Source: Candidatus Obscuribacteraceae bacterium
GTDB taxonomy: Bacteria; Cyanobacteriota; Vampirovibrionia; Obscuribacterales; Obscuribacteraceae
Direction: 5' to 3'
Assembly (NCBI GenBank): GCA_044226015.1
Contig: JBGAHS010000005.1
Span: 576,001-640,000, forward strand
DNA length: 64,000 bases
Part shown: positions 30,980 to 45,219 of the stretch, one piece after another
How positions within the stretch are numbered: position 1 is the first letter of the stretch
Layout: each line of letters begins with the position of its first letter
Made by a program: the position numbers and the translations under genes
The notes under the pieces: model-generated
What the model was told of the DNA's origin: nothing
Database searches by the model: none
The model's input: the letters and a program-made list of their open reading frames with translations, nothing else

Positions 30980-31011
30980 TCACTCAGATTTCACGCGAAC
31001 CAATAGAGAAT
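30980..31011 (+). promoter_or_regulatory. TCAC-N7-TCAC box with weak -10 (GAGAAT)
   Basis: TCAC-TCAGATT-TCAC-N11-GAGAAT upstream of ORF 31042. Confidence 0.55.
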
Positions 31012-31041
31012 CCTTCTATCGGAACAACGAATTGGTGAGAT

Positions 31042-31443
31042 ATGGAAAACTTCAATGAGAATGCCAACCTCTGCCGCAAGGTCAATATGAGTGATGGAGA
31101 GGTTCATACTAAAGTTTTTGATGAGTTGCACAATGTTCTTGCAGCTCGAAACACGAGCATCGGATCACTGTTTCATGTTGATGTTCGAACCGACTTTCCA
31201 TTGAAACAAGATGATGGCACGAACAAATGGTATGAAGAGTTTCCGACGCACACAAACTTGAAGACGGGCAAATCTGATCGTCTGGACACCGACCTGTATG
31301 AATACGACCCTGCTTCCGATAAAAGAGGGCGTCAGCTAGCTAAAGACTCGGAAGAGTACAAAGCAGCGCATGATGCACTTTGGGTTCTCCGTGATAGGTT
31401 CACTCCGAAAGTGCTACTGAATCTCCCGCGCTGCAAATATTGA
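31042..31443 (+). CDS. Hypothetical protein
   Basis: 133-aa ORF with GGTGA SD, preceded by a TCAC box and followed by a terminator. Confidence 0.7.
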   Translation: MENFNENANLCRKVNMSDGEVHTKVFDELHNVLAARNTSIGSLFHVDVRTDFPLKQDDGTNKWYEEFPTHTNLKTGKSDRLDTDLYEYDPASDKRGRQLAKDSEEYKAAHDALWVLRDRFTPKVLLNLPRCKY

Positions 31444-31469
31444 TTTTACCTGCGTTCCCAAACCAAACC

Positions 31470-31506
31470 AACGACAAAGCAGACCACAAGTCTGTTTTGT
31501 CGTTTT
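31470..31506 (+). terminator. Intrinsic terminator hairpin between convergent genes
   Basis: AACGACAAAGCAGAC-CACAA-GTCTGTTTTGTCGTT then TT. Confidence 0.75.
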
Positions 31507-31566
31507 AAATTTTGCACTATGGGCGCTGGATTGAGCAGCGACTCGGATTCAGTGACTCGGATTCAG

Positions 31567-32360: not shown

Positions 32361-32392
32361 TCACGTGATTTTCACAATGGTGAAATTACGAT
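32361..32392 (+). promoter_or_regulatory. TCAC-N7-TCAC-N11-TACGAT promoter box
   Basis: Same geometry as the array promoters; upstream of ORF 32440 and divergent from the response regulator. Confidence 0.7.
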
Positions 32393-32439
32393 GTTTTCCA
32401 TAAACATCCTCCGCGAATTTCGAGGATAGAGGAGTCCAA

Positions 32440-33189
32440 ATGACAGCAGATAGAACACACCCGAATGACTTCAATAAAATTTCCGAGAAGCATGGAAAAG
32501 CAGAAGGTGAATCGGTACATCAAAAATTACTAGCTGATTCCACACCAAACCCAAATCAATTTACTAAAGGCCAAGAAAATAGAAATGATGCGAATGCCGC
32601 TGTGAAAGCGCAGGGATTTCCAGATTTGCAATTGCATGATTCATCAAAAAATAGTGACGCTAAGAAAGATCATCCAAAGGATGGTCATACCGATCCTAAA
32701 GACAGTGCGACCACGCCGAAGGATAGCGCTGGGAACGGCGGTAAAGATTCCGCTGCTAATGGACAATCGCACAAGGGCAGTGAATCCACTCGTAATCAGG
32801 AATCAATAAAAAACGCCCCGGAAGCGAAGGGTGGTAATGAGCGTATAAAAAACGCACCTCACTCAGATAATTCAAAGGCTGAATTTGAGCAGAGTCCAAA
32901 GGATTCAAATGGAAATCAGCATAAAGACTCTGGCAAATCTGGCGATAAGCTGATGGGAGCCAGCCAGACTCCAGCTGCCGGAGTAACAACCAATCTCGAT
33001 GGAAGTACAAGTGTGGTTGGAAAGGATTCACCAAACTCCTCTCAGACAGCGCCTGGCGAGAACAAACCTGATTTTGGGCAAGCACAGCAAAAGGAAAAGC
33101 CAAATCAAACCAACAACTCTGATGCTGCACATGGTGGCAAAACAGACAGCTCAGCTGATCGACATGGATTAGCAAAGGGCAAAGACTAA
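32440..33189 (+). CDS. Hydrophilic low-complexity (probably disordered) protein
   Basis: GAGGAG SD; K/D/S/N/G-rich with recurring KDS; followed by a long hairpin. Confidence 0.7.
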   Translation: MTADRTHPNDFNKISEKHGKAEGESVHQKLLADSTPNPNQFTKGQENRNDANAAVKAQGFPDLQLHDSSKNSDAKKDHPKDGHTDPKDSATTPKDSAGNGGKDSAANGQSHKGSESTRNQESIKNAPEAKGGNERIKNAPHSDNSKAEFEQSPKDSNGNQHKDSGKSGDKLMGASQTPAAGVTTNLDGSTSVVGKDSPNSSQTAPGENKPDFGQAQQKEKPNQTNNSDAAHGGKTDSSADRHGLAKGKD

Positions 33190-33415: not shown

Positions 33416-33498
33416 GCAAGAGCAGGGCTGCAAGAGAAGGTTGGAAGTGCAGGGTTGTAAGATCAACGTTGCAAGAACTGGGTTGCAAGAGCAGGGCT
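33416..33498. repeat. Six degenerate ~14-bp tandem units (GCAAGAGCAGGGCT)
   Basis: First and last copies identical; inner copies diverged. Confidence 0.6.
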
Positions 33499-33576
33499 GG
33501 GTGATCAAGTCAGTAATTTGGATCGTATATACAGATTGTCACGGTCTTTTCATTCGAAGCTTAGTATTCTAGCTTG

Positions 33577-33694
33577 TGTTGAACGACAAGAACGCATCAG
33601 TCCGAACTGAGCCTAAGTTCAAAAAGATTTTCCTCAAGCAACCAACCAACACCTCATAGAGACAGACTTCTGCCAAGTCTGTCTTTATGATTTT
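33577..33694 (+). ncRNA. Putative sibling sRNA, unit 1
   Basis: Promoter TCAC-GGTCTTT-TCAT-N11-TATTCT (33539-33570); 5' GTTGAAC..GTTCAA; core CCTCAAGCAACCAACCAA; hairpin TCATAGAGACAGAC/GTCTGTCTTTATGA plus TTTT. Ends inferred. Confidence 0.6.
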
Positions 33695-33777
33695 GTGCAT
33701 GACAATAGAGTAAGAATGCAGAATTGAACATGCCAAAACTCACGCATTTTTCACCTAGCCAAAACTACTCTATAAAC

Positions 33778-33935
33778 ACAATCCCTTCCAAAACAAATTC
33801 CCCAAGAATGACTTTTGAATGATTCCTTCAGCCAGGAGGCGAGCCACATAATCCAAATCCCTTAACTTTTACCTCAAGCAACCAACCAAAAACTTCATAA
33901 GGACAGATCACTGCCAGGTCTGTCCTTTTGAATTT
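33778..33935 (+). ncRNA. Putative sibling sRNA, unit 2
   Basis: Promoter TCAC-GCATTTT-TCAC-N11-TACTCT (33740-33771); TCCC motifs; TAATCCAAATCCCTTAACTTTTA plus core; hairpin AAGGACAGAT/GTCTGTCCTT. Ends inferred. Confidence 0.6.
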
Positions 33936-34030
33936 GGTTTTCTCGATTGTTTGAACTGTTTTGAAAGACTGTGTTGTAATACATATGTTTGTTCACGCCG
34001 TTTTCACACCCAAATGACTATTCTGTTTTT

Positions 34031-34184
34031 GTTGATAGTTTTTCTGGTTCACCGGAAGAGCGCTGCGGAAAACCAAATACGGTGCAAGACGCGGACGCTC
34101 AACTTCAACAAGATTTTTCCTCAAGCAACCAACCAAACCAACAGCATAGGGACAGACTCTGCCAGGTCTGTCCCTATGTTTGTT
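34031..34184 (+). ncRNA. Putative sibling sRNA, unit 3
   Basis: Promoter TCAC-GCCGTTT-TCAC-N11-TATTCT (33993-34024); 5' GTTGA..TCAAC; core; hairpin AGCATAGGGACAGAC/GTCTGTCCCTATGTT. Ends inferred. Confidence 0.6.
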
Positions 34185-34226
34185 ATACCTGTGGTCCTTA
34201 TTTCTGCGTCTGATGAATCTCCATCC

Positions 34227-34362
34227 GTCGGATTCGCGTCTGTCGGATTCGCGTCTGTCGGATTCGCGTCTGTCGGATTCGCGTCTGCCGGATTCGCGTC
34301 TGTCGGTTGGCGTCTGTCGGTTGGCGTCTGTCGGATTGGCATTTGTCGGATTGGCGTCTGTT
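34227..34362. repeat. Tandem 15-bp minisatellite (GTCGGATTCGCGTCT) x5 followed by about 4 shorter degenerate copies
   Basis: Read directly; lies between units 3 and 4. Confidence 0.9.
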
Positions 34363-34522
34363 GAATCTGCGCTTTTATCCTGGAGCGCAAGCTTCTATCT
34401 GTAGTTGGTCAAACACATTTTCTGAATGCACAGAGATCTGCTTGAATCTAGAATAAGAAACTGTGCGAATCCACTGCTGGTGAGTCACGGCTTTTTCACA
34501 GCGAGTTGATTAGTCTATAACT

Positions 34523-34695
34523 GTTGAACGTTTCCCCTGTTCAATACCAATGCTCTCCCTTAACGAACCTAAGCCTAATCCAATTCACAAGCACCCTCGG
34601 AGGCTCTGAACCGTAATCCAAATCCTTTAACTTTTACCTCAAGCAACCAACCAAACTCAAAGGACAGACTCTGCCAGGTCTGTCCTTTTGATTTT
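34523..34695 (+). ncRNA. Putative sibling sRNA, unit 4
   Basis: Promoter TCAC-GGCTTTT-TCAC-N11-TAGTCT (34485-34516); 5' hairpin TTGAAC-GTTTCCCCT-GTTCAA; core; terminator AAAGGACAGAC/GTCTGTCCTTTT. Confidence 0.65.
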
Positions 34696-34742
34696 GCTGC
34701 GACCCTCTTGCTGTCGCTTGCTTATACTCTAAGGGTAAGACC

Positions 34743-34774
34743 TCTTCTTCTTCTTCTTCTTCTTCTTCTTCTTC
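34743..34774. repeat. (CTT)n trinucleotide microsatellite, about 10 units
   Basis: tcttcttc... run between units 4 and 5. Confidence 0.9.
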
Positions 34775-34988
34775 TCTTTCTATTTCTACGCTGTTCTGTT
34801 TTGGCGGCTTAAGAGGGTTTTGGATACATCGTAATCGGAAGCTATCGGGAATTGTAAGAGAGATAGTGCCATATATGGTATCACTGTATATATGATTTGG
34901 TTGGGGATTTGGTTTCTGAGAAAACACTGTGTGAATCCACTGCTGGTGAGTCACGGCTTTTTCACAGCGAGTTGATTAGTCTATAACT

Positions 34989-35157
34989 GTTGAACGTTTC
35001 CCCTGTTCAATATCAATGCTCTCCCTTAACGAACCTAAGCCTAATCCAATTCACAAGCACTCGGAGGCTCTGAACCATAATCCAAATCCTTTAACTTTTA
35101 CCTCAAGCAACCAACCAAACTCAAAGGACAGACTCTGCCAGGTCTGTCCTTTTGATT
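34989..35157 (+). ncRNA. Putative sibling sRNA, unit 5 (recent duplicate of unit 4)
   Basis: 34927-35157 is nearly identical to 34461-34693 (few substitutions, one 2-nt indel); promoter at 34951-34982. Confidence 0.65.
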
Positions 35158-35269
35158 GGTATGAAGGTCGCTGTAGCACTGGTTTTGTGATCATTAGCTG
35201 CATGCAACTGTAGGAATCTACCGATGTAGAATCACAGTTATTTCACAGCAGGCGGACTACTATAATCTC

Positions 35270-35438
35270 AATTGAACTATCCCCTGTTCAATCCTAAAGC
35301 TCTCCCTTAACAATTTGAGCTATTCCGAGATAAATACCTACTTTGGAGGTCTCTGCTTATAACCTAACCCTAATCCAAATCCCTTAACTTTAACTCAATC
35401 AAGGATGGACTTCTGCAGAGTCCGTCCTTTTTTGATTG
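35270..35438 (+). ncRNA. Putative sibling sRNA, unit 6 (diverged; lacks the AAGCAACCAACCAA core)
   Basis: Promoter TCAC-AGTTATT-TCAC-N11-TACTAT (35232-35263); hairpin ATTGAAC-TATCCCCT-GTTCAAT; GCTCTCCCTTAAC; TAATCCAAATCCCTTAACTTT; terminator AAGGATGGACT/AGTCCGTCCTT plus T-run. Confidence 0.6.
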
Positions 35439-35572: not shown

Positions 35573-35604
35573 TCACAGCGTTTTCACCCCAGAAGAATTA
35601 GTTT
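35573..35604 (+). promoter_or_regulatory. TCAC-N7-TCAC-N11-TAGTTT promoter box
   Basis: Same geometry; upstream of ORF 35673. Confidence 0.65.
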
Positions 35605-35672
35605 ATTAGCATAAACATCATCGCTTTCTATTCATTTGTTTCACGCAACCCCATATATAGGTCCAAACTGTC

Positions 35673-36137
35673 ATGTTCAAACCAGCCATAGATATCGACC
35701 CAGTTGCGCTGAGAAGCGTCAACATCGCCGCTGCGCCACTACCACCAGTGGCAACAGTTCCACCAGCAAATATTCAATCCAAAGTCCAGGAAAAAGAACT
35801 CGCAAGACAGCTCACTGAGAGACTAGTCGAAGAACTGAAGGATGAACTCATCAATGCTTCAATTGGTGAATCCATTCAGATTCATATTCCGCCCCTGGAT
35901 AACAACTTCGGTTGCCTCACTAAGGTCAAATTTATAGGACGTGCCAACGCTTCTAAATCTGACATGACTACACTTCCAGATTTGAAGAAATTTCAGGATG
36001 AGATTCTCTATCCTGATATCTGTATGGCCCGTTCCGGTAGCGTCATTCCTGAGTGGAAATCTCTCAAATTTTTGATTGGAACCGAAAAGTATGCCGTTGT
36101 GATGATGTGCTTTGTTGGAATTAAGCGCTCAGCTTAG
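35673..36137 (+). CDS. Hypothetical protein
   Basis: 154-aa ORF convergent with the lipid operon; no recognisable motif. Confidence 0.6.
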   Translation: MFKPAIDIDPVALRSVNIAAAPLPPVATVPPANIQSKVQEKELARQLTERLVEELKDELINASIGESIQIHIPPLDNNFGCLTKVKFIGRANASKSDMTTLPDLKKFQDEILYPDICMARSGSVIPEWKSLKFLIGTEKYAVVMMCFVGIKRSA

Positions 36138-37222
36138 TTTCGTGCTTGCTTGAATAAGTAGTGCGATACAATCCATTCTTCACCTTGTCTGTAGCCCCAG
36201 AGTTCAGCGCATGCCAGAAAGAACAAGCGCCAATATATCCACCAACGTTTTGCCTGAGCCTCGCCATAAGTGTCAGCTAGAATGGGAAGAATTCGTTCCC
36301 TGTTAGAACTCATGTTCTCAAGCCAGGCTTCTGCGGTTTTCTGATAATGCTTGCCGTTAACTTTCCAATCCTTTTCGATTTTCAAGTCCTTGTTGAAGTG
36401 AGATAACAGATCATGTGATGGCATGGTTCCGCCCGTGAAAAAGTACTTCGTGAGCCAGTCGTTCTGGTCAGAGCTGTCGAAATGGTATGGATGTTCCACG
36501 TGTGTAAAAATATGCACAAATAGCTTGCCATCAGCTTTGAGCCAGCATGAAAGTGTTTGCAATAGTCTCTCGTAGTTTTTCATGTGTTCGAACATTTCGA
36601 CCGATACTATTCTGTCGAAGCGTTCATTTTCCCCGAAGAATGACTCGGTAAGCTCGGCGACGTTCCTGGTTAGTACGGTCAGGTTCCTTATTCCTCTTAA
36701 TTCAGCTCGACGCATGATACTTTCACGCTGGCTGTTTGAATTGGAAATCGCTATAAAAGTCGAACCAGGGTATTTGGCAGCAGCGAAGAGTGAGAAAGCT
36801 CCCCAACCGCACCCGAGGTCGAGCACCCGTTGTCCGTCGTTAATTTGGGCACGCTCACACGTCTCGGCAAGCATTCTGTTTTCAGCTGAATCTAAACTGT
36901 CGTTGTCTTGCCAAAGTGCACAGCTGTATTTCATGTTAGAGCCGAGTATCATTTCATAGAAGGAAGCTGGCACCTCGTAGTGTTGTTTATTTGCTGAATC
37001 GGTAGACACTGCCACTGGTGAATGTCTCAGTTCTTCAACAAAGTCTCTTTTCCTTTGTGCCGGGTTACCGCTACCGAGTTCACGCGTCTTTTGTGCCAGC
37101 ATGTTTCGAATGCCAAGTCTCACGACGAATTCTGGCACCAAGCCTGTCGCAATAAAGTCATAGAGGGCAATATTGCTTTTTGAGTCTTCACAGTATTTTC
37201 TGTTCAATGTGCTGCTGGTCAT
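36134..37222 (-). CDS. CFA-synthase-like SAM-dependent methyltransferase (coclaurine N-methyltransferase-like clade)
   Basis: ANKQHYEVP, MKYSC, LDLGCGWG, SNSNSQR, DRIVSVEMFEHMKNY, FFTGGTMPS, WRLFFLACAELWG. Confidence 0.9.
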   Translation of the reverse strand: MTSSTLNRKYCEDSKSNIALYDFIATGLVPEFVVRLGIRNMLAQKTRELGSGNPAQRKRDFVEELRHSPVAVSTDSANKQHYEVPASFYEMILGSNMKYSCALWQDNDSLDSAENRMLAETCERAQINDGQRVLDLGCGWGAFSLFAAAKYPGSTFIAISNSNSQRESIMRRAELRGIRNLTVLTRNVAELTESFFGENERFDRIVSVEMFEHMKNYERLLQTLSCWLKADGKLFVHIFTHVEHPYHFDSSDQNDWLTKYFFTGGTMPSHDLLSHFNKDLKIEKDWKVNGKHYQKTAEAWLENMSSNRERILPILADTYGEAQAKRWWIYWRLFFLACAELWGYRQGEEWIVSHYLFKQARN

Positions 37223-38007
37223 GTTGTTCTCCTGAACCAGGGAATGAATACCGAGGTTCTTTTTTGATAGTCTGCATAATCTGATCGCGTTTTAACTGAA
37301 TGTTCTTCGGAGGGTTTAACGCCTGTTACGTTGAAGAGCAAATGTAAGAGTGTTAGAGACGAGCTCACTGAGAGGACGCCCCACGGCGAACCGAGCGCGT
37401 AAATAGTGAACGAGCTCGCAGCTAACCATTCAAAAAAGTAGTTTGGATGGCGCGAGTAGTACCATAATCCTGTTTGGCATGTTTTACCTTTGTTGGCTGT
37501 GTTTTTCGAAAATTCGGCTAATTGCTGATCTGAAATTGCTTCACACGTCATTGAAATGAGCCAGATGGATGCAGCGATCCAGTGAAGAGCATCAATTGCT
37601 TGTTCATGGTCAGTCACTACAAATGCAAATGGTGCAGACATAAGGCATAGAATGAGTCCCTGCCAGAGGAATATGACTAGCAGCTTTATGCCATTCTTGT
37701 CTTCGCCCATCTGCCTCTTCAACTCGGTGTATCTTGCGTCTTCTTCAGGATAATGGCGCAAAAATCTGTTAGTGAGATGCCAGGTGAGGCGAAGACTAGA
37801 AACTACAACCATTGTTGCCAGTAGCAGTTGCCGCCCACCAGTGTTTCCTGAACAAAGCAAGTAAAGCACAACGAGAATTGTTGACCCGAACGCCCACGAT
37901 AAATCAACGATTCCCGCATTTCGAATTCGCTGTGCAATAAACCATGTGAGAGTCATGAAACCCGCACTGCAGCCTAATCCTATTGCCAGTATCAAGAATG
38001 CATTCAT
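37219..38007 (-). CDS. DUF1295 family membrane protein (steroid 5-alpha-reductase-like)
   Basis: NAGIVDLSW, EDARY, E.ISDQQL..F, GLWYYSRHPNYFFEW, YQKRTSVFIPW. Confidence 0.9.
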   Translation of the reverse strand: MNAFLILAIGLGCSAGFMTLTWFIAQRIRNAGIVDLSWAFGSTILVVLYLLCSGNTGGRQLLLATMVVVSSLRLTWHLTNRFLRHYPEEDARYTELKRQMGEDKNGIKLLVIFLWQGLILCLMSAPFAFVVTDHEQAIDALHWIAASIWLISMTCEAISDQQLAEFSKNTANKGKTCQTGLWYYSRHPNYFFEWLAASSFTIYALGSPWGVLSVSSSLTLLHLLFNVTGVKPSEEHSVKTRSDYADYQKRTSVFIPWFRRTT

Positions 38008-39311
38008 TCAACCAGTTCCGAACTCAGCTCATAATTATTGGGACGCGAGTACAAAGACTGAACTACTGAGATGTTTCGCATATGAAAAGCTGCCTGGCAA
38101 TATTCGAAGTAATAATTCCATTTGCGCTTGAATTTGTCATCGAAGCCCATCGCTTTGATATGTTGCCACTCACGATTGAAATTTCTATCCCACAGCTTTA
38201 GAGTGGCTACATACGAGTCAGTCATGTCAAAAACATCAATTGGGAACAGGTCTCCACACTTTTGCATAGCACCTGAGACGCGGCGTAGCGAAGGAAGTAG
38301 TGAACCCGGAAAAATATGTTTTTGAATAAAGTCGACGTTGCGCTTCAAAGTTTCGTATCGCGAATCTGGGCAGGTGATCATCTGCAGGAGTACCAGACCA
38401 TGGGGTTTAAGAACTGAATCGATTGTGGAGATGTACTTGTCCATATACTCGTCACCAACAGCTTCGATCATTTCTATGGATACGACTTTATCAAAGCTAC
38501 CTTTGAGGTCTCGGTAATCGAGTAATTTCAGGTCGATGCGGTCTTCTAGCCCTGCGGCTCTCACTCTGCGTTGGGCATATTCGAGTTGCGCTTCTGATAT
38601 TGTTATTCCGGTGATACGGCACCCATATTTAGACGCTGCATGAACTGCAAATGCGCCCCATCCGCAGCCAATCTCAAGGACGTGATCCTTTGAGTTGAGC
38701 CGCAACTTCTTGCAAATGCGATCGAATTTGGCGTATTGAGCTGTTTCCAAATCCTGATTTCCTGATTCGAATAGGGCTGAGGAATAGGTCATCGAAGGGT
38801 CTAATATTTTGTTGAAAAAATTGTTTCCCAGGTCGTAGTGCTCGTATATGTTAATGCGACTGTTTTTGACTGAGTTATTTCTAGCCACGTGAGCCAGGCG
38901 ATTAAATGCACCTAGTAAATTGAATGCGATTCCAGATTTCTTTGACTCGGTCATAACAGGTGAGTTGTCTGTGTTTATGAGAAACCAGGAGATGACGTCC
39001 CTGATGCTACTAATCTGGCATAGTCCGTCCAGATAAGATTCTGCTAGCCCTAAATCTGCATAAAGCAAGCAGCGTTCAAAGAACTCATCGTTGAAAATTT
39101 CAATTGTTGGCGTTTCTTTGAATATAGATTCTGACGGTTGGGCTTGCCCAAAGACAAGTGACTCACCATCTGGAGTGATGATTCGCAGCCGATCGCGCCT
39201 TAATTGTCTTAAGAGCGAAATGATGATGCTTTTTGCCTGGCGTCTAATAAAGCTGGAAAATGCGCTTCCTGGCTGTGTCGGAATTGTGTGGTTCAGGTTT
39301 GATATCATCAT
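38004..39311 (-). CDS. Cyclopropane-fatty-acyl-phospholipid synthase family methyltransferase
   Basis: NI..HYDLGN.FF, MTYSSA, VLEIGCGWG, SIEMIEAVG, FIQKHIFPGS.LPS, W.YYFEYC.AAF. Confidence 0.9.
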   Translation of the reverse strand: MMISNLNHTIPTQPGSAFSSFIRRQAKSIIISLLRQLRRDRLRIITPDGESLVFGQAQPSESIFKETPTIEIFNDEFFERCLLYADLGLAESYLDGLCQISSIRDVISWFLINTDNSPVMTESKKSGIAFNLLGAFNRLAHVARNNSVKNSRINIYEHYDLGNNFFNKILDPSMTYSSALFESGNQDLETAQYAKFDRICKKLRLNSKDHVLEIGCGWGAFAVHAASKYGCRITGITISEAQLEYAQRRVRAAGLEDRIDLKLLDYRDLKGSFDKVVSIEMIEAVGDEYMDKYISTIDSVLKPHGLVLLQMITCPDSRYETLKRNVDFIQKHIFPGSLLPSLRRVSGAMQKCGDLFPIDVFDMTDSYVATLKLWDRNFNREWQHIKAMGFDDKFKRKWNYYFEYCQAAFHMRNISVVQSLYSRPNNYELSSELVE

Positions 39312-40349
39312 TTACTCGCTTTGAATTGGTCTTGGATTTAGAACATTCGTTTGTAATTCTGGATGCTCTTCTTTTCTATGAAAAGGTATGCGCTTAAGCC
39401 ATAAAATCGCTGCATGAAGGTGGATCAAAAAAATGACATTTATTGTGCAGAGAGGATTAGCCAGTGCAAGTTTTAAGATACTTTTATCGCTGAATTCGTG
39501 TCGCTCTCCTGCGATGTAGCCAGCCATGATGAGCTTTTGAGCGTCATCAGCTAGCTCTGTGGTGCTTATTTGAATAGCTAAGTGCTTGCCGGGAATGCCG
39601 ACCTTGAAGTCGAAGAATTGGTCCAATTCCGTAAATGGAGAGACGTAGAAATACTTTTTCTGTACATCGCAAAAGAAGTCAGCTTTTAAGTCGCGAAGAA
39701 GATACATTTTTCTCTCATGGAATGTATTCTCTACTTCGACGATGCAGCAAATTAGCTTTTGATGAGAGTCAAAGCAATAAAAGCAAGAGATGGGATTGAA
39801 CACATAGTTAAAGTTTCGAACATTGCATAGCAGAGCCACTCTTTCAATTTGCTCCTCAACTCCCTGGTCTTGCAAATAACCCCGCACTCTTTCAAGTAAG
39901 GAGCTTGGTGCCTCCTGGCTGTTTTGCCAGTCTAGGTTCTCGCTATTGCTGTTGGCTGAGACTTGGAGCTTCTCTCTGTCAATGCGATTGGCCGCTGGTT
40001 TGTTTTTACTAAGCGCTACAGGGCAGCTTTTGCCTGAGTCATTGTCGTCGTTTCGTTCTGTATTTTTTTGTTCTGTATTGTGTGGTTCTTTATTGTTTTG
40101 ATCTCTCAAGGGAAAATGATCTGATTCCAGGAAGCGAAAAATCCTTTGCTGCTCAGTGCCAAATAATGAAGTGGCTAACTCTAATTCCGACAGTTCATCC
40201 AACCAGAGGTAGAACATGAAATGAGAGAGTGAAAATTCATGCTTTTTCGGGGTGAAGCGTCGGTGTTTAATAGAACATTTGTACAGGCAGGAGTCAAATC
40301 GCCTTACCTTGTTCCTATTCCTCTCTGCTGCTGTTAAAGCCTGAATCAT
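39312..40349 (-). CDS. DUF1365 family protein
   Basis: HRRFTPKKHEF, YVFNPISCFYC, EVENTFHER, K.FYVSPF, IHLHA..LWLK. Confidence 0.85.
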   Translation of the reverse strand: MIQALTAAERNRNKVRRFDSCLYKCSIKHRRFTPKKHEFSLSHFMFYLWLDELSELELATSLFGTEQQRIFRFLESDHFPLRDQNNKEPHNTEQKNTERNDDNDSGKSCPVALSKNKPAANRIDREKLQVSANSNSENLDWQNSQEAPSSLLERVRGYLQDQGVEEQIERVALLCNVRNFNYVFNPISCFYCFDSHQKLICCIVEVENTFHERKMYLLRDLKADFFCDVQKKYFYVSPFTELDQFFDFKVGIPGKHLAIQISTTELADDAQKLIMAGYIAGERHEFSDKSILKLALANPLCTINVIFLIHLHAAILWLKRIPFHRKEEHPELQTNVLNPRPIQSE

Positions 40350-41611
40350 ACTAAAATACCAGTTTTACTCAGAATTCTAGTCACAGCTAGCGAGGAATTG
40401 AGAGCGTCTTCGTGAAAACCATAGGTGAAGTAGCTTCCGCAAAAATAGATGTTTCCACTGTTCTCATTGAGCTTATGCAGTGACTTTTGGGCTTCGACAG
40501 CTTCCAGGGTGAAGATTGGATGATGGAAGTCGAAGCTGTTCAGCACCGCAGATGGAGCAATAATATTCTGACTATTCAGCGAAACAAAATAGTCCTTTTT
40601 CTTTGACACGCCCTGCAGCGAATTCATCCAGTAGTGGGTTGTGGCAGTGTGACCGTCTTGCTCAATACGATAGTTCCATGATGACCAACAACGGTTGCAC
40701 TCAGGCATCACACTAGTGTCTGTGTGGACTATGGCATTGTTTAACTGGTATTTGAATTTTGAAAGCAATGTGTGCTCGATTTCACGTGGCTGGTCTAAAA
40801 TTGAAAGGGCTTCGTCGGCATGGCATGCAAATATCACCTTATCAAATTCAAAGTTATCGCCTTCTTTTGTGCGTATCTGCACCTTGTTGTTGGATGCCCT
40901 GCTAACTCGTTCTACTGCAGAGTGAATCTTTCTGCTGCTGTTCGGCAGTTTGCTTTCGATCTTCTTCACGTACTCGCGTGCGCCACCTTCCACCGTCCAC
41001 CACTGATGCTGAGTCTTCTGACCCAGAAAACCATGATTATGGAAAAAGCGAAGTAGGCTGTTTGCAGGAAAGTCTATGATCTTCGAGGGCGGAGTTGACC
41101 AAACCGCACTACTCATTGGAACGAGATAGAAATCTAGTAAGTCTTGACCATAACCTCTCGAAAGAACGTACTCCCTGAGAGACATCGCTTTGAATGACTC
41201 CGCATCGATGGACGGTACTGCATCTTTATTGAATTGATCAAGCGCAAAGAGCATTTTCCAGAATCGCAAATTCACTAAGTTGCGTCGGTCTGCGAACAGC
41301 CGATTGAAACTTGCGCCTGAATATTCCAGGTTGAAACGCTTTTGCTGAACACTGAAAGACATATCAGTCCTTTTTGTTGCTACATCTAGTTCTGCAAACA
41401 ATTTTGTAAGGTTTGGATATGTGACGTGGTTAAAGACCATAAAGCCTGTGTCTAATGACACAGACTTTCCATCTTCCGCAAAATCGAGAGTCCTGGTGTG
41501 ACCACCGACATAATTGTTCTTTTCGAAAATGGTTATTTCATACTGGTCCCTCAGGTAGTATGCTGCGGAGAGCCCGGCTATCCCACTACCCACTATGGCG
41601 AGTTTCTTCAT
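40346..41611 (-). CDS. FAD-dependent oxidoreductase (COG2907-type)
   Basis: AIVGSGIAGL, GGHT, DTGFMVFN..TYPN, DMSFSV, SSWNY, YWMNSLQ, YGFHEDAL; ATG 41611 overlaps the upstream stop (ATGA). Confidence 0.9.
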   Translation of the reverse strand: MKKLAIVGSGIAGLSAAYYLRDQYEITIFEKNNYVGGHTRTLDFAEDGKSVSLDTGFMVFNHVTYPNLTKLFAELDVATKRTDMSFSVQQKRFNLEYSGASFNRLFADRRNLVNLRFWKMLFALDQFNKDAVPSIDAESFKAMSLREYVLSRGYGQDLLDFYLVPMSSAVWSTPPSKIIDFPANSLLRFFHNHGFLGQKTQHQWWTVEGGAREYVKKIESKLPNSSRKIHSAVERVSRASNNKVQIRTKEGDNFEFDKVIFACHADEALSILDQPREIEHTLLSKFKYQLNNAIVHTDTSVMPECNRCWSSWNYRIEQDGHTATTHYWMNSLQGVSKKKDYFVSLNSQNIIAPSAVLNSFDFHHPIFTLEAVEAQKSLHKLNENSGNIYFCGSYFTYGFHEDALNSSLAVTRILSKTGILV

Positions 41612-42603
41612 GTTCGGTTCCTCGAATATGTCTGAACCGCCTGTGGTGCTAGCTCGGTTTGAGCATTTTCTAAAGCCTTTTGTGGAGCATGTTTGAGATC
41701 CCAAATGATGCCTAGTTTGTTTAATATCACCAGTGCATAGTAAGTAAAATCAATTTCCCACCAGTAAAAGCCCTGTCTCACACTATTTCGGTAGAAGTGA
41801 TGATTGTTGTGCCAGCCTTCACCGAGCGTGATCAAAGCACAGAGAAAATTATTTCGACTGTTGTCATTAGTCTTGTATCTTCGACTTCCCCAGAGGTGGC
41901 AGATGCTGTTGATGCTTGAAGTCGCATGAAACAGAAGAACCGTGCTGATAAAGAAACCCCAGACTAGTAATTGTGGTCCCGAAGTATGCAAGTCGGGGCG
42001 ATAAAGTTGTAGGAGCTGACCAGTCCCGAGCAACCCTACTGCCAGTAACAATGGCATAAGCCAGTCAAACCTATTCAGAAATCGCAGCTCTGGAAATTTC
42101 TCGAAGTCCTTAATCCTTGAGTAGTCGGTAGGCATGTTCTGGGAGGAAGTGATCCATCCTATATGAGCCCAGAGGAAGTCGCGCGAGATGGGGGAATGTA
42201 TATCTCCTTCTTCATCAGATTCGGCATGATGTTTGCGATGATGAGCAGCCCACCACAACGGTCCTCTCTGAACTGAACAGAGTCCAATCACCGCAAATAT
42301 GAATTGAGCGACTCGCGAAGTCTTGAATGTTCTGTGTGAGAAATAGCGATGATAAAAACCTGTGATGGCGAACATGCGCACCAAATATAGTGAAAAGCAA
42401 GTTGCCACGTCGAACCATGATACTGGCATCGCCAGAGCTGCCAGACAACTCAAATGCAAGAAAGCAAATGGTATCCATCTGTCTGGCTCAGGTTCAGGGC
42501 GTACAACCTTCTCCGGAGATTTTTTCTCAGTATCTGAATCAAGCCACGCAAAAAAGGTATTAGCCTTAGTATTCTCAGAGGCAGCTTTCATTTTATACCG
42601 CAT
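41608..42603 (-). CDS. Delta-9-type acyl-CoA/acyl-lipid desaturase
   Basis: His boxes HRYFSH, HRKHH and GEGWHNNHH. Confidence 0.9.
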   Translation of the reverse strand: MRYKMKAASENTKANTFFAWLDSDTEKKSPEKVVRPEPEPDRWIPFAFLHLSCLAALAMPVSWFDVATCFSLYLVRMFAITGFYHRYFSHRTFKTSRVAQFIFAVIGLCSVQRGPLWWAAHHRKHHAESDEEGDIHSPISRDFLWAHIGWITSSQNMPTDYSRIKDFEKFPELRFLNRFDWLMPLLLAVGLLGTGQLLQLYRPDLHTSGPQLLVWGFFISTVLLFHATSSINSICHLWGSRRYKTNDNSRNNFLCALITLGEGWHNNHHFYRNSVRQGFYWWEIDFTYYALVILNKLGIIWDLKHAPQKALENAQTELAPQAVQTYSRNRT

Positions 42604-42742: not shown

Positions 42743-44755
42743 ATGGAGACCGACAGAATGATTGATAATCCCGACTCGAGAAGTGTGAATCGCAGTTCTG
42801 CGGAAGAAAGGTTCAGTAGTCTGCACGAGGATGCGTATTCGTCGGAGAAAGGAAACGGCCTTCAATCGTCTCGAAGTGTTAGCACTGGTAAATTGGCTCA
42901 GAATGAACCGGAATTTCAAATTGAAGTTGTGCGGCATCGTCGTCCTGATAACGATGGCGAGAATCACCAGTACCGTAATTACCAGTACCGTAATTACCAG
43001 TACCGTCGTGATGATTATGATGGCGAATATAACCAGTATCGTCATCCTTATGAAAGGAGCGATAGGCATCGATTAAGTAATAGTTATGACTACAGGCAAT
43101 ATGGTGATTTGTCTGCTCCAGTAGAGAAACCTGGCTTCTTTTCAGAGGCATGGCATGCTGGTTTGCGCTCTCTTGTTCAATCACCTCTCGATAATGCTGC
43201 ACAACTTGTCGATAATACTGTGGGCAAGTTTCTTGACACCCATCTTTACGACAAAACAAAAGAATTGATTGTAGCCAACAATAAAGCAGATGTGGAAGTC
43301 GGCTCAGCGGCATGGCACGGAAGAATGGTTGGTGATGTGGTAGGAATGCTTCCGTGGATGCTTCTTGCTAATAAAGTTGTTCGTGGATCATTAGGAAGTT
43401 TCGAGGCAAGCAAAGGGCTGATCTCATCAGGCGAGGCTCTTGGACAGGCTACGTTCCGTCAGTCTTTTACTGAAGGTGCGCTAACTGGAGCCACTTATAC
43501 CGGACTATTTAGCTCTGAATCAGACAACGAGAACTTCTGGTCTTCGAAAGCAAAGCATACGGCATTAGGTGCTGGAATGATGGGAACATTTGGTGCATTC
43601 AATAACGGTATTCTGCAGCGTATGGCCGAGCGCAATTTGAGCGGCACAGCTTCAAGAATGTTTGCTGGTGCTCTGTCTGCTCTTCCGGGTGCTGCTGTTG
43701 AGACTGGGCTGGACCATATGTTGTATGAGCGCAATACTGATCTGGTATCAGATTTCAAAGTTAATCTGTATAAGGACGCTTTGATTGGGGCTGGCTTTAA
43801 TGGACTGTCTCGTTTTGAGAATGCTGCTGATAGAGTGCGCGCGGCAGAAAAAGTTGATCTTAAACCACTAGAGGCACCTACAACAATTGCAGAGATGCCT
43901 GAAGGCTCGGTTGGATGGACCCCAAGTTGGGCTTTGAAGACTGGACCAAAGAATACACTCTGGATTTCATCAGATGCGGTTGCAGGCACTGAATTCAATG
44001 CATCTCCGGCCCTCTCTAATACCCTAAGGGTTATAAGAACAGAGAATGGTGGCATTGCTGTAGATATGGCTAAGATGGCTGATCCATCACATGCAATTAC
44101 GTGGCGAAATTCATCGGACCCCAAGGGAGAAGGATTCTTGCCGGTAGGACTTGCAATGCATCCTAAGGGCGTTTTTCCATTTGAAGGAAACCAGGCTCGT
44201 TTGCCGGCTGGCTATGGTGAAAATATAAAACCGGACCTTACTCCGCGGACCTTCTCTGATTCCAGACCTGCCCCAGCAGACAGAGCCCAAAGCCCAGGTT
44301 CTTCACCGCCCTCTTCAAGTTCTGGCTGGGGACTTTTTGAACATTTTCTGTTCTGGAATTGGATTAGTGGTGGCAGTAGCCACATACATAATCAAACAAC
44401 TTATAACCTGGGCGGTACTGATTCAAGTTTCACCAGCAATTCTGATGTTGCCGGTGCTGCGCCAGGTACTGGGCTCTTCGGTGGATGGGGCGCCGATCGC
44501 AGCTGGGGTGGCGACAACGCCCAGCAAGGTACCGCCGGTGGTGATACCACTGGTCAAGGCTGGGGCGCTACGCTAGGCTGGGGCGACAGCAATGGTGCTC
44601 AAACCTTCGGAGGCGACGATGGTTATCGAAGTGGAGGCGACGATGGCTACCGAGGTGGAGGTGAGCAGCAGTTTGACCAACCTGCATACGACCCGCCAGC
44701 ATATGACCCGCCAGCGTATGATCCCGCACCAGACATCACTAGCTACGACGTCTAG
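42743..44755 (+). CDS. Hypothetical Gly-rich protein with hydrophobic Gly/Ala helices and short peptide repeats
   Basis: 670-aa ORF; YRNYQ repeats, GGDDGYR x2, AYDP x3, Gly/Trp-rich tail. Confidence 0.7.
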   Translation: METDRMIDNPDSRSVNRSSAEERFSSLHEDAYSSEKGNGLQSSRSVSTGKLAQNEPEFQIEVVRHRRPDNDGENHQYRNYQYRNYQYRRDDYDGEYNQYRHPYERSDRHRLSNSYDYRQYGDLSAPVEKPGFFSEAWHAGLRSLVQSPLDNAAQLVDNTVGKFLDTHLYDKTKELIVANNKADVEVGSAAWHGRMVGDVVGMLPWMLLANKVVRGSLGSFEASKGLISSGEALGQATFRQSFTEGALTGATYTGLFSSESDNENFWSSKAKHTALGAGMMGTFGAFNNGILQRMAERNLSGTASRMFAGALSALPGAAVETGLDHMLYERNTDLVSDFKVNLYKDALIGAGFNGLSRFENAADRVRAAEKVDLKPLEAPTTIAEMPEGSVGWTPSWALKTGPKNTLWISSDAVAGTEFNASPALSNTLRVIRTENGGIAVDMAKMADPSHAITWRNSSDPKGEGFLPVGLAMHPKGVFPFEGNQARLPAGYGENIKPDLTPRTFSDSRPAPADRAQSPGSSPPSSSSGWGLFEHFLFWNWISGGSSHIHNQTTYNLGGTDSSFTSNSDVAGAAPGTGLFGGWGADRSWGGDNAQQGTAGGDTTGQGWGATLGWGDSNGAQTFGGDDGYRSGGDDGYRGGGEQQFDQPAYDPPAYDPPAYDPAPDITSYDV

Positions 44756-45219
44756 CGGCAGAAGTTCACGCGGTGCTTTTCATAATATTTCTGATGGTAC
44801 TCTTCGGCTCGCCACCATGTGCCAGCTGGCTCTAAATATGTATGGATTGCCCGTTTGCTTCTGGTTCCGAAATCTTTCAACGCACGCTTCGCCTCTTCCT
44901 CTTGCCCTGGGCCAGAAAAAAGGATAGAAGTGCGATATTGTCCGCCTCTGTAAAAAGGGACTTCAAAACTAGGATTGTGTTGCCTTAAGAACAATAGAAC
45001 GAGTTCGTAATAGCTTGTTTTTTCGGGGTCGTAAATCACTTTTACTCCCTCGGCATGTCCGGTTCTACCTGAGCAGACCTGCTCATATGTCGGGTTTTCT
45101 GTTCTACCGCCTACATATCCAACTTCAGCTGATATGACGCCTGGCAGTTTTCCCAGTTCTTCCTCGACTCCCCAGAATCAACCTGCGGCAAAAATTGCGA
45201 AGTTCTCTGTTTTATCCAT
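44752..45219 (-). CDS. msrA: Peptide-methionine (S)-S-oxide reductase with in-frame TGA at the catalytic residue (probable selenoprotein)
   Basis: From ATG 45219 (GGAGA SD): MDKTENFAIFAAG-TGA-FWGVEE..VGYVGG..NPTYEQVCSGRTGHAE..QYRTSI..AEEYHQKY; TGA at 45180-45178. Confidence 0.85.

Follow-up and report, generated by a model that had tools for sequence, protein, structure and literature searches.

Listeria LhrC1-5 are multicopy small RNAs (sRNAs) that depend on the two-component system LisRK, four of them at one locus; almost identical to one another, 111-114 nt long and equipped with UCCC seeds, they pair with Shine-Dalgarno (SD) regions through C-rich motifs in their loops and in an unpaired stretch before the terminator (PMC4132741). 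The streptococcal csRNAs form sets of 2-6 siblings under CiaRH, measure 87-151 nt, carry stretches directed against the ribosome-binding site (anti-RBS) and the start codon (anti-AUG) and lie mostly at dispersed loci (PMC4507080, PMC4211561), and E. coli OmrA/OmrB are two tandem siblings with conserved 5' and 3' ends and both shared and unique targets (PMC4211561). Cyanobacterial Yfr1 (RF01116) consists of a 5' hairpin, an unpaired C/A-rich stretch with CCUCA and a terminator, and blocks ribosome-binding sites (PMC2190773, PMC2796815). Among promoters, OmpR/PhoB tandem boxes of the PHO box type are direct repeats on which a tandem dimer displaces the -35 contact (PMC11825685). Here we analyse a window of 64,000 nt from a Candidatus Obscuribacteraceae bacterium (assembly GCA_044226015.1, contig JBGAHS010000005.1, positions 576,001 to 640,000) and argue that positions 33539-35438 of this window hold an array of six sibling sRNA genes, which would work like LhrC or the csRNAs, is a member of neither, and has the layout of Yfr1. 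The lineage concerned comprises non-photosynthetic sisters of cyanobacteria.

The array consists of six non-coding units, all in one direction, every one of them equipped with a promoter box and a terminator-type hairpin of its own (Table 1). A preliminary description of this DNA had proposed six co-oriented units of about 120-170 nt with TCAC-box promoters, in good agreement with the 116-171 nt predicted here for RNAs taken to start 7 nt after the TAnnnT hexamer, a start inferred from the -10 element. Every box follows the pattern TCAC-N7-TCA(C/T) and is separated from its hexamer by exactly 11 nt, and the (G/A)TTGA noticed earlier 7-8 nt past the -10 is present in five of the six units, unit 2 being the exception. 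The exact element reported just before the hairpin of units 1-5 is an 18-mer, hereafter the core, CCTCAAGCAACCAACCAA, of which unit 6 retains CTCAA alone. It is made of NCAA repeated with a 4-nt period and is predicted to be unpaired in the five units (P 0.71-0.96), as is motif A, TCCAAATCC(C/T)TT, common to units 2, 4, 5 and 6. The terminal hairpins vary in their stems as quoted in that description and keep their pairing: 70 of 72 cells pair and both sides are altered in 4 of 12 pairs, a count reached by 4 of 500 shuffles, which is not a probability because the copies are related. As terminators, the hairpins were only partly recognised, with plus-strand calls in the terminator scan for four of six and minus-strand calls alone for units 3 and 5. 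Fold z-scores range from -2.3 to -6.1 (five units folded). The sequence confirms the division into two subfamilies, the TCCCCT loops in units 4-6 and the 2-nt indel by which units 4 and 5 differ; unpaired UCCC occurs in units 2, 4, 5 and 6, unit 1 has none, unit 3 has it only in paired form, and the shared core contains none. Open frames in the region are short or cross a 15-bp tandem repeat, and no shared small open reading frame (ORF) with an SD site was found on either strand of the units. Spacers and flank also contain this 15-bp tandem repeat, a (CTT)n run and 14-bp repeats (34203-34386, 34743-34775, 33416-33499). A set of related units that each possess a promoter and a terminator is the mark of regulator-driven sibling sRNAs. 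We consider that the six units are very probably real RNA genes and likely form, as predicted transcripts, a family of sibling sRNA genes not listed before but of a known general kind.

No Rfam family matched the window at gathering score, nor the array at E up to 2, which bears out its earlier reading as an unrecognised multicopy sRNA family. Like LhrC, the array RNAs are multicopy, similar in size and proposed to be under two-component control and to pair with SD regions through C-rich motifs; they differ from it in the missing Rfam match, the six tandem copies, the divergent 5' domains, the CA-rich core and the restriction of UCCC outside the terminator stem to units 2, 4, 5 and 6. As in the csRNAs, CAU lies a few bases from an anti-SD UCC(C/U)UU in units 2 and 5, whereas the array again lacks the Rfam match, is tandem and not dispersed, and belongs to a different phylum. 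The CiaR box is TTTAAG-N5-TTTAAG, in contrast to the TCAC-N7-TCAC of the array promoters. LhrC and the csRNAs, named earlier as analogues, are thus the systems that the array would most resemble in its working, and by sequence tests it is a member of neither. OmrA/OmrB are controlled by OmpR, and differ from the array with its six copies and divergent 5' domains. With Yfr1, which is probably from the same phylum, the units share a two-hairpin layout, a 5' hairpin and a terminator hairpin flanking an unpaired conserved stretch. By contrast, the 59 model positions of Yfr1 include an invariant ACUCCUCACAC that the units lack: with up to one mismatch this sequence has 7 intergenic matches, none of them in the array, and RF01116 gave nothing over cut-off in five of five genomes. 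The direct repeat in place of a -35 element recalls the PHO box. PhoB boxes stand 10 nt from the -10, as against 11 nt at the array boxes; moreover, the neighbouring regulator falls below the PhoB cut-off, and the scan of 27 box-driven proteins brought up no recognisable phosphate genes.

At DNA level, homologs of the array were found in none of 40 relatives, and no array lies within about 15 kb of the regulator ortholog in four of four genus relatives. A degenerate core with one mismatch gave single matches in 9 of 400 class genomes, and in none of these did the context resemble an array; a model of the 3' module gave 4 weak matches among 103 family genomes, which we read as generic terminators. 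Exact patterns yielded no metagenome locus, 44 single matches in unrelated taxa and 5 single viral matches, and the loop-1 pattern yielded 32 metagenome loci, none fitting the model of the second RNA described below. The RNA family is probably one of the Obscuribacterales. In a literature search that most subscription papers and all supplements lay outside, no small RNA, regulator box or regulon was described for the lineage. New, at the level of sequence, are the box as a genome-wide promoter class that tracks the regulator, a second box-driven RNA, and a complementarity between CCAA in the RNAs and TTGG at box genes.

The array is not a dispersed miniature inverted-repeat transposable element (MITE) or repetitive extragenic palindrome (REP), as the core recurs at a single other locus, that of the second RNA, which is itself box-driven: with up to two mismatches it has 8 genome matches, all within these two loci. 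This RNA of about 480 nt is highly structured (z -10.4), contains three repeats of about 100 nt and converges on a bifunctional methionine synthesis gene. Each repeat loop equals the core at 16 of 18 bases and motif A stands in the first hairpin loop. Matches to the motif A pattern number 10 genome-wide, of which the array and the second locus together account for five, and neither core nor motif A occurs in any of 65 other box-downstream windows. An ortholog in the relative G007 (L088:1500-1790) lies beside the same methionine gene with the same promoter, has one repeat and shows re-paired stems; among 25 of the 30 loci listed, only this genome and G007 carry the RNA behind that gene. The array would capture the birth and amplification of sRNAs at several stages, with a possible source in a 3' untranslated region (UTR), divergent older copies and a near-identical new pair, to which the three-repeat and one-repeat versions of the second RNA add a further stage.

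The array promoters belong to a class spread over the genome (8.2 Mb, 92% complete). A box matrix trained on 52 sites outside the array scores them at 23-26 bits and finds 73 sites of at least 17 bits, as against 4 in the reversed genome. At a threshold of at least 13 bits, a box lies within 150 nt of 74 of the 6629 called genes, of which the reversed control suggests 3-9 by chance. The Pfam scan covered 27 box-driven proteins, hand-chosen and mostly long, with matches in 10 and none in 17. Five protease families are represented (S41, M4, trypsin-like, C11 and S8/S53), together with a GH25 lysozyme, ChaN, a weak LRR, a GNAT and an MFS transporter. Many box-driven proteins start with a D/E/N-rich leader and have no hydrophobic signal peptide.

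Several lines of evidence connect this box with the OmpR/PhoB-type regulator next to the array. Its ortholog (E up to 1e-78) was found in 36 of 103 family genomes, and 35 of these 36 have at least 4 strict boxes, versus 7 of the 67 genomes without it. Five of these seven exceptions were checked: in G017, G013, G019 and G221 the match falls in the same clade (support 0.82), and in G216, which has 13 boxes, the best regulator match lies outside it. Among members of the genus, ortholog and boxes occur together in G002, G006 and G007 and are both missing from G001, G003 and G005 (0 boxes). In G007 a box stands just upstream of the regulator ortholog; 7 of the 8 strict boxes of that genome lie on one contig beside the ortholog (G007:C52:15558-37801). 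Three non-array boxes lie within 10 kb of the regulator, the most among 30 OmpR-type genes retrieved, and box-driven genes or RNAs are close to the ortholog in genera g1, g17, g18, g33 and g34. An 11-bp-period direct repeat in the -35 place fits tandem binding by dimers of the OmpR/PhoB family (PMC11825685). We consider it probable that the neighbouring regulator drives the box, to which it is predicted to bind. The regulator link drawn in the preliminary description is thus supported by co-occurrence and neighbourhood, whereas adjacency alone is weak in a genome with 102 matches to this regulator; and the RNAs, described there as the output of the pair, would be one output among about 74 box-driven genes. 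What emerges is a regulator together with the DNA motif that it likely reads, a set of about 74 genes and several families of RNA.

Box-driven RNAs also accompany this regulator in other genera. In g33, a structured RNA of about 280 nt occurs in 12 of 13 genomes (L245:1501-1793, L243-L254), directly behind the regulator ortholog wherever both were located; it has C-rich loops, a CCAUCCUCCU-type loop and a CA-rich linker, and 6 of its 63 predicted pairs are changed on both sides. One conserved loop of this RNA repeats the regulator half-site TCACGC and might be a decoy. A box-driven RNA of 90 nt follows the regulator ortholog in g18, and a related one lies 5.8 kb away from it in g17. No Rfam match was obtained for box RNAs of other genera in the six loci scanned, and the g33 RNA model has no match to the array; its one weak match in this genome, over the start of an opposite-strand gene, was discarded. 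Since different box RNAs stand behind the same regulator, an RNA arm beside it recurs without shared sequence. A Yfr1-like layout, with ACUCCU and CCAACCACAC ahead of a strong hairpin, was seen in short RNAs or 3' UTRs at L343:1936-2033 (G017), L079:1501-1591, L078 and L415 (g32); the one in G017 is box-driven, and boxes without an ORF in G017, G158, G255 and G108 likewise lead into hairpins. A Yfr1-like motif common to the whole family was rejected, because 62 of 401 genomes match, the reversed control does about equally and most matches are coding. A cobalamin riboswitch (Rfam RF01482, 65 bits) lies near the regulator ortholog in G108 (L238:3400-3546).

Candidate targets were sought around the start codons of box genes, in a genome that uses ordinary SD sites. 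CCAA is the commonest 4-mer in both RNA loci, with 18 occurrences in five units and 12 in the second RNA. Its complement TTGG is found in the start regions (-35 to -4) of 23 of 74 box genes versus 856 of 6503 (p 6e-5), ranking first or second among 4-mers, and GTTGG, complement of the core repeat unit, is the top 5-mer (11/74 versus 178/6503, p 7e-6), with a count that exceeds all of 500 dinucleotide shuffles. In four coding windows of the box genes, TTGG shows no enrichment. In nine relatives in which no array was found, it occurs in 5 of 100 box-gene start regions versus 15 of 120 in the background, a comparison that used a stricter box pattern and left out 18 further boxes without a called ORF. 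Judged by duplex energies, box mRNAs pair better with the RNAs than other mRNAs do (p 0.002-0.03), motif A alone came close in the class tests (1 of 60 shuffles), and the tenth-best genome-wide core duplex beat all 12 and all 18 shuffles. The highest-ranking leaders of box genes in this pairing comparison lie at G000 C8:568268, C10:447950, C11:1365644 and C11:961096. Four trypsin-like Pfam matches among 13 predicted targets are no evidence, as those targets were hand-picked by their N-termini. From sequence, many short-seed targets near ribosome-binding sites may be expected, with the regulon as the leading candidate set. That the RNAs act by base-pairing seems to us somewhat probable; that the regulon is their main target is a tentative proposal, held with less than even confidence. 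If the GUUGG match is functional, it would offer a compact example of sRNAs that act on the regulon to which they belong.

We thus propose, with a probability of roughly 0.5, that the array encodes sibling sRNAs switched on by the neighbouring OmpR-type regulator and pairing near ribosome-binding regions, most plausibly those of its own regulon's mRNAs. The kinase would phosphorylate the regulator, a tandem dimer of which would occupy the 11-bp-period repeat that replaces the -35 element, so that about 74 genes and the RNAs would be induced together. Unpaired CCAAC, CCUCAA and UCCC would then bind GUUGG, UUGAGG and GGGG near the SD sequence and limit translation, which could turn the hydrolase programme into a pulse through an incoherent feed-forward loop. 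Tandem duplication would lift the dose, and differing 5' domains would broaden the target range. Somewhat unlikely, taken as a whole, is the wider picture of a leader-bearing protease/lysozyme programme driven by the regulator together with an amplified RNA brake reading CCAAC-GUUGG, in which other genera reinvent the RNA arm and keep regulator and box. A number of observations weigh against the proposal of regulon-directed sRNAs. As no other genome yielded the array, the core is seen to be conserved between paralogs alone, and in the G007 ortholog of the second RNA motif A (loop 1) is retained but the core (loop 2) is altered, though still CA-rich. The strict box pattern gives TTGG in 2 of 11 start regions of this genome (p 0.14), about 70% of box genes have no TTGG, the TTGG count was reached by 18 of 500 dinucleotide shuffles, and the gene starts come from a simple gene caller. 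Shuffled seeds equalled the target-class energies in 16 and 9 of 100 and in 18 and 15 of 60 cases, further energy tests were equalled by 4, 2 and 3 of 14 shuffles, and another lay within the range of 25 shuffles; as shuffled seeds do almost as well, composition explains most of the pairing gap of box mRNAs. No single long complementary target stood out genome-wide. Concerning the regulator, the genomes in the co-occurrence counts are related and hence not independent, one of the scans behind these counts scored only 28 candidates per genome, G004 has the ortholog yet one box, and neither regulator nor kinase is preceded by a box in this genome. These last two points, the box-rich G216 and the 102 regulator matches would also fit the same RNAs under a box read by another of the ~100 OmpR-type regulators or some other factor, the neighbouring pair being incidental; we find this unlikely in view of the co-occurrence itself, the clade shared by the matches in G013, G019, G221 and G017, and the box-driven genes or RNAs near the ortholog in five genera.

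The failure of the energies to beat shuffles would speak for RNAs acting as protein sponges, whose unpaired NCAA words would bind an RRM, cold-shock or Hfq-like protein and so lift or impose its control. The 4-nt period of the core, the abundance of CCAA, the loop multiplied three times in one second-locus transcript, and the five RRM proteins and the weak Hfq-like protein of 79 aa encoded in the genome would agree with such a role. Sponging predicts, however, the same word in mRNAs, whereas the leaders of box genes hold its complement and CCAA is not raised there (6/74 versus 10.7%); the exact conservation of the CCUCAA and UCCC loops rather suits anti-SD pairing, and the CsrA on which a likeness to Csr/Rsm sponge RNAs would depend was not found (0 matches in this 92% complete genome, control positive in 3 of 14). 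We therefore regard sponges as rather unlikely. Still less likely is an array that represents debris from duplication of a box promoter and a 3' UTR/terminator, or a DNA sink titrating the regulator, with the RNA incidental. Its presence in one genome only, the very recent duplication of units 4 and 5, the simple repeats in the spacers and the resemblance of the 3' end of the nearby 133-aa gene to the module would all be accounted for in this way, but the exact 18-mer persists in five copies despite diverged flanks and 5' domains, stem pairs have changed in both partners, and G007 has kept a separate RNA, likewise box-driven, that carries these motifs. Finally, the minus strand of the core resembles an SD region and units 1-5 contain short minus-strand ORFs with such a site, as if the units encoded small peptides or antitoxins to minus-strand toxin mRNAs (a type I toxin-antitoxin array). 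These ORFs vary in position and length (14-27 codons), none was found in unit 6, the plus strand has none, and units 4 and 5, otherwise nearly identical, are thrown out of a common frame by the 2-nt indel, which makes this last explanation highly improbable.

Table 1. Coordinates of the array, its neighbours and related box-driven RNAs (window positions unless a contig or locus is named)
Feature	Coordinates	Strand	Remarks
Promoter 1	33539..33570	+	TCAC direct repeat, 11-nt spacer, -10; 23.5 bits, matrix trained outside array
Predicted sRNA 1, 116 nt	33577..33692	+	5' hairpin; core 33632-33649; terminator hairpin 33654-33690
Promoter 2	33740..33771	+	26.2 bits
Predicted sRNA 2, 154 nt	33778..33931	+	motif A at 33852; core 33872-33889; hairpin 33899-33927
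Promoter 3	33993..34024	+	25.7 bits
Predicted sRNA 3, 152 nt	34031..34182	+	branched 5' domain; core 34119-34136; hairpin 34145-34178, weak plus-strand U tail
Promoter 4	34485..34516	+	25.6 bits
Predicted sRNA 4, 171 nt	34523..34693	+	UCCCCU loop; motif A at 34617; core 34637-34654; hairpin 34659-34688
Promoter 5	34951..34982	+	identical to promoter 4
Predicted sRNA 5, 169 nt	34989..35157	+	97-99% identical to unit 4; core 35101-35118; hairpin 35123-35152
Promoter 6	35232..35263	+	23.2 bits
Predicted sRNA 6, 166 nt	35270..35435	+	UCCC loops; motif A at 35374; core reduced to CTCAA; hairpin 35401-35429
Second box-driven RNA locus	contig C11 about 44345-44820 (G000:C11:44312-44820; L019:2313-2821)		promoter 20.7 bits
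Box-driven two-hairpin RNA of about 90 nt, genera g18 and g17	L238:6995-7095, L239:7595-7691, L240:12755-12862
Membrane histidine kinase, 846 aa	28429..30969	+	likely partner of regulator
Box promoter (30980) and 133-aa ORF	30980..31443	+	no known family; between kinase and regulator
3' UTR and terminator of 133-aa ORF	31444..31508	+	resembles array 3' module; 21.8 bits, E 0.01, weak
OmpR/PhoB-type response regulator, 225 aa	31567..32244	-	likely reader of box (co-occurrence, tree)
Box promoter (32361) and 249-aa hydrophilic ORF	32361..33189	+	no known family
Box promoter (35573) and 154-aa ORF	35573..36137	+	no known family; directly past unit 6

The two-component system said to adjoin the array is indeed present nearby, though kinase and regulator converge around the 133-aa ORF, and the 249-aa ORF separates the regulator gene from the start of the array, 1.3 kb away. 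A similar kinase stands beside the regulator ortholog in four of four genus relatives examined, similarity being judged by eye from the N-termini. The regulator stays below the cut-off of all 25 NCBIfam families shown, RppA being the best (193 of 250 bits) and PhoB reaching 176 of 296. At 90% identity it clusters with regulators of close relatives on three short contigs. The 133-aa ORF and its box are kept in G006, where the 3' end of the gene differs; judging from sequence similarity, its 3' UTR is a possible local origin of the array 3' module. Atlas searches with the 249-aa and 154-aa ORFs came back blank. Farther on, positions 36134-42603 hold an operon-like set of genes for a fatty acid desaturase, a flavin adenine dinucleotide (FAD) oxidoreductase, a DUF1365 protein, two cyclopropane synthases and a DUF1295 protein, which converges on the array flank.

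Genome-wide, at least 45 proteins, many of them proteases or lysozymes, have the D/E/N-rich N-terminal leader without a hydrophobic signal peptide (e.g., 32440-33189 and 42758-44755); a first leader profile did not converge and a later one found 45 genes. The leader ends in a short helix-like A-S-x-x-L-x-x-E-A motif and is possibly an export signal of a kind not known so far; a search for a type III or flagellar export gate in the genome found none. Two further boxes lead into features of their own, one into an immediate short terminator hairpin that may represent a tiny RNA (G000:C9:40070, minus strand), the other, a weak box, into a tandem repeat of about 37 bp (G000:C11:1358398, minus strand). 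The RNA polymerase beta-prime gene is split into parts of 611 and 1223 aa, and a second, divergent rpoB-like ORF of 1279 aa lies away from the rpoB-rpoC1-rpoC2 cluster (G000:C11:704340-708179).

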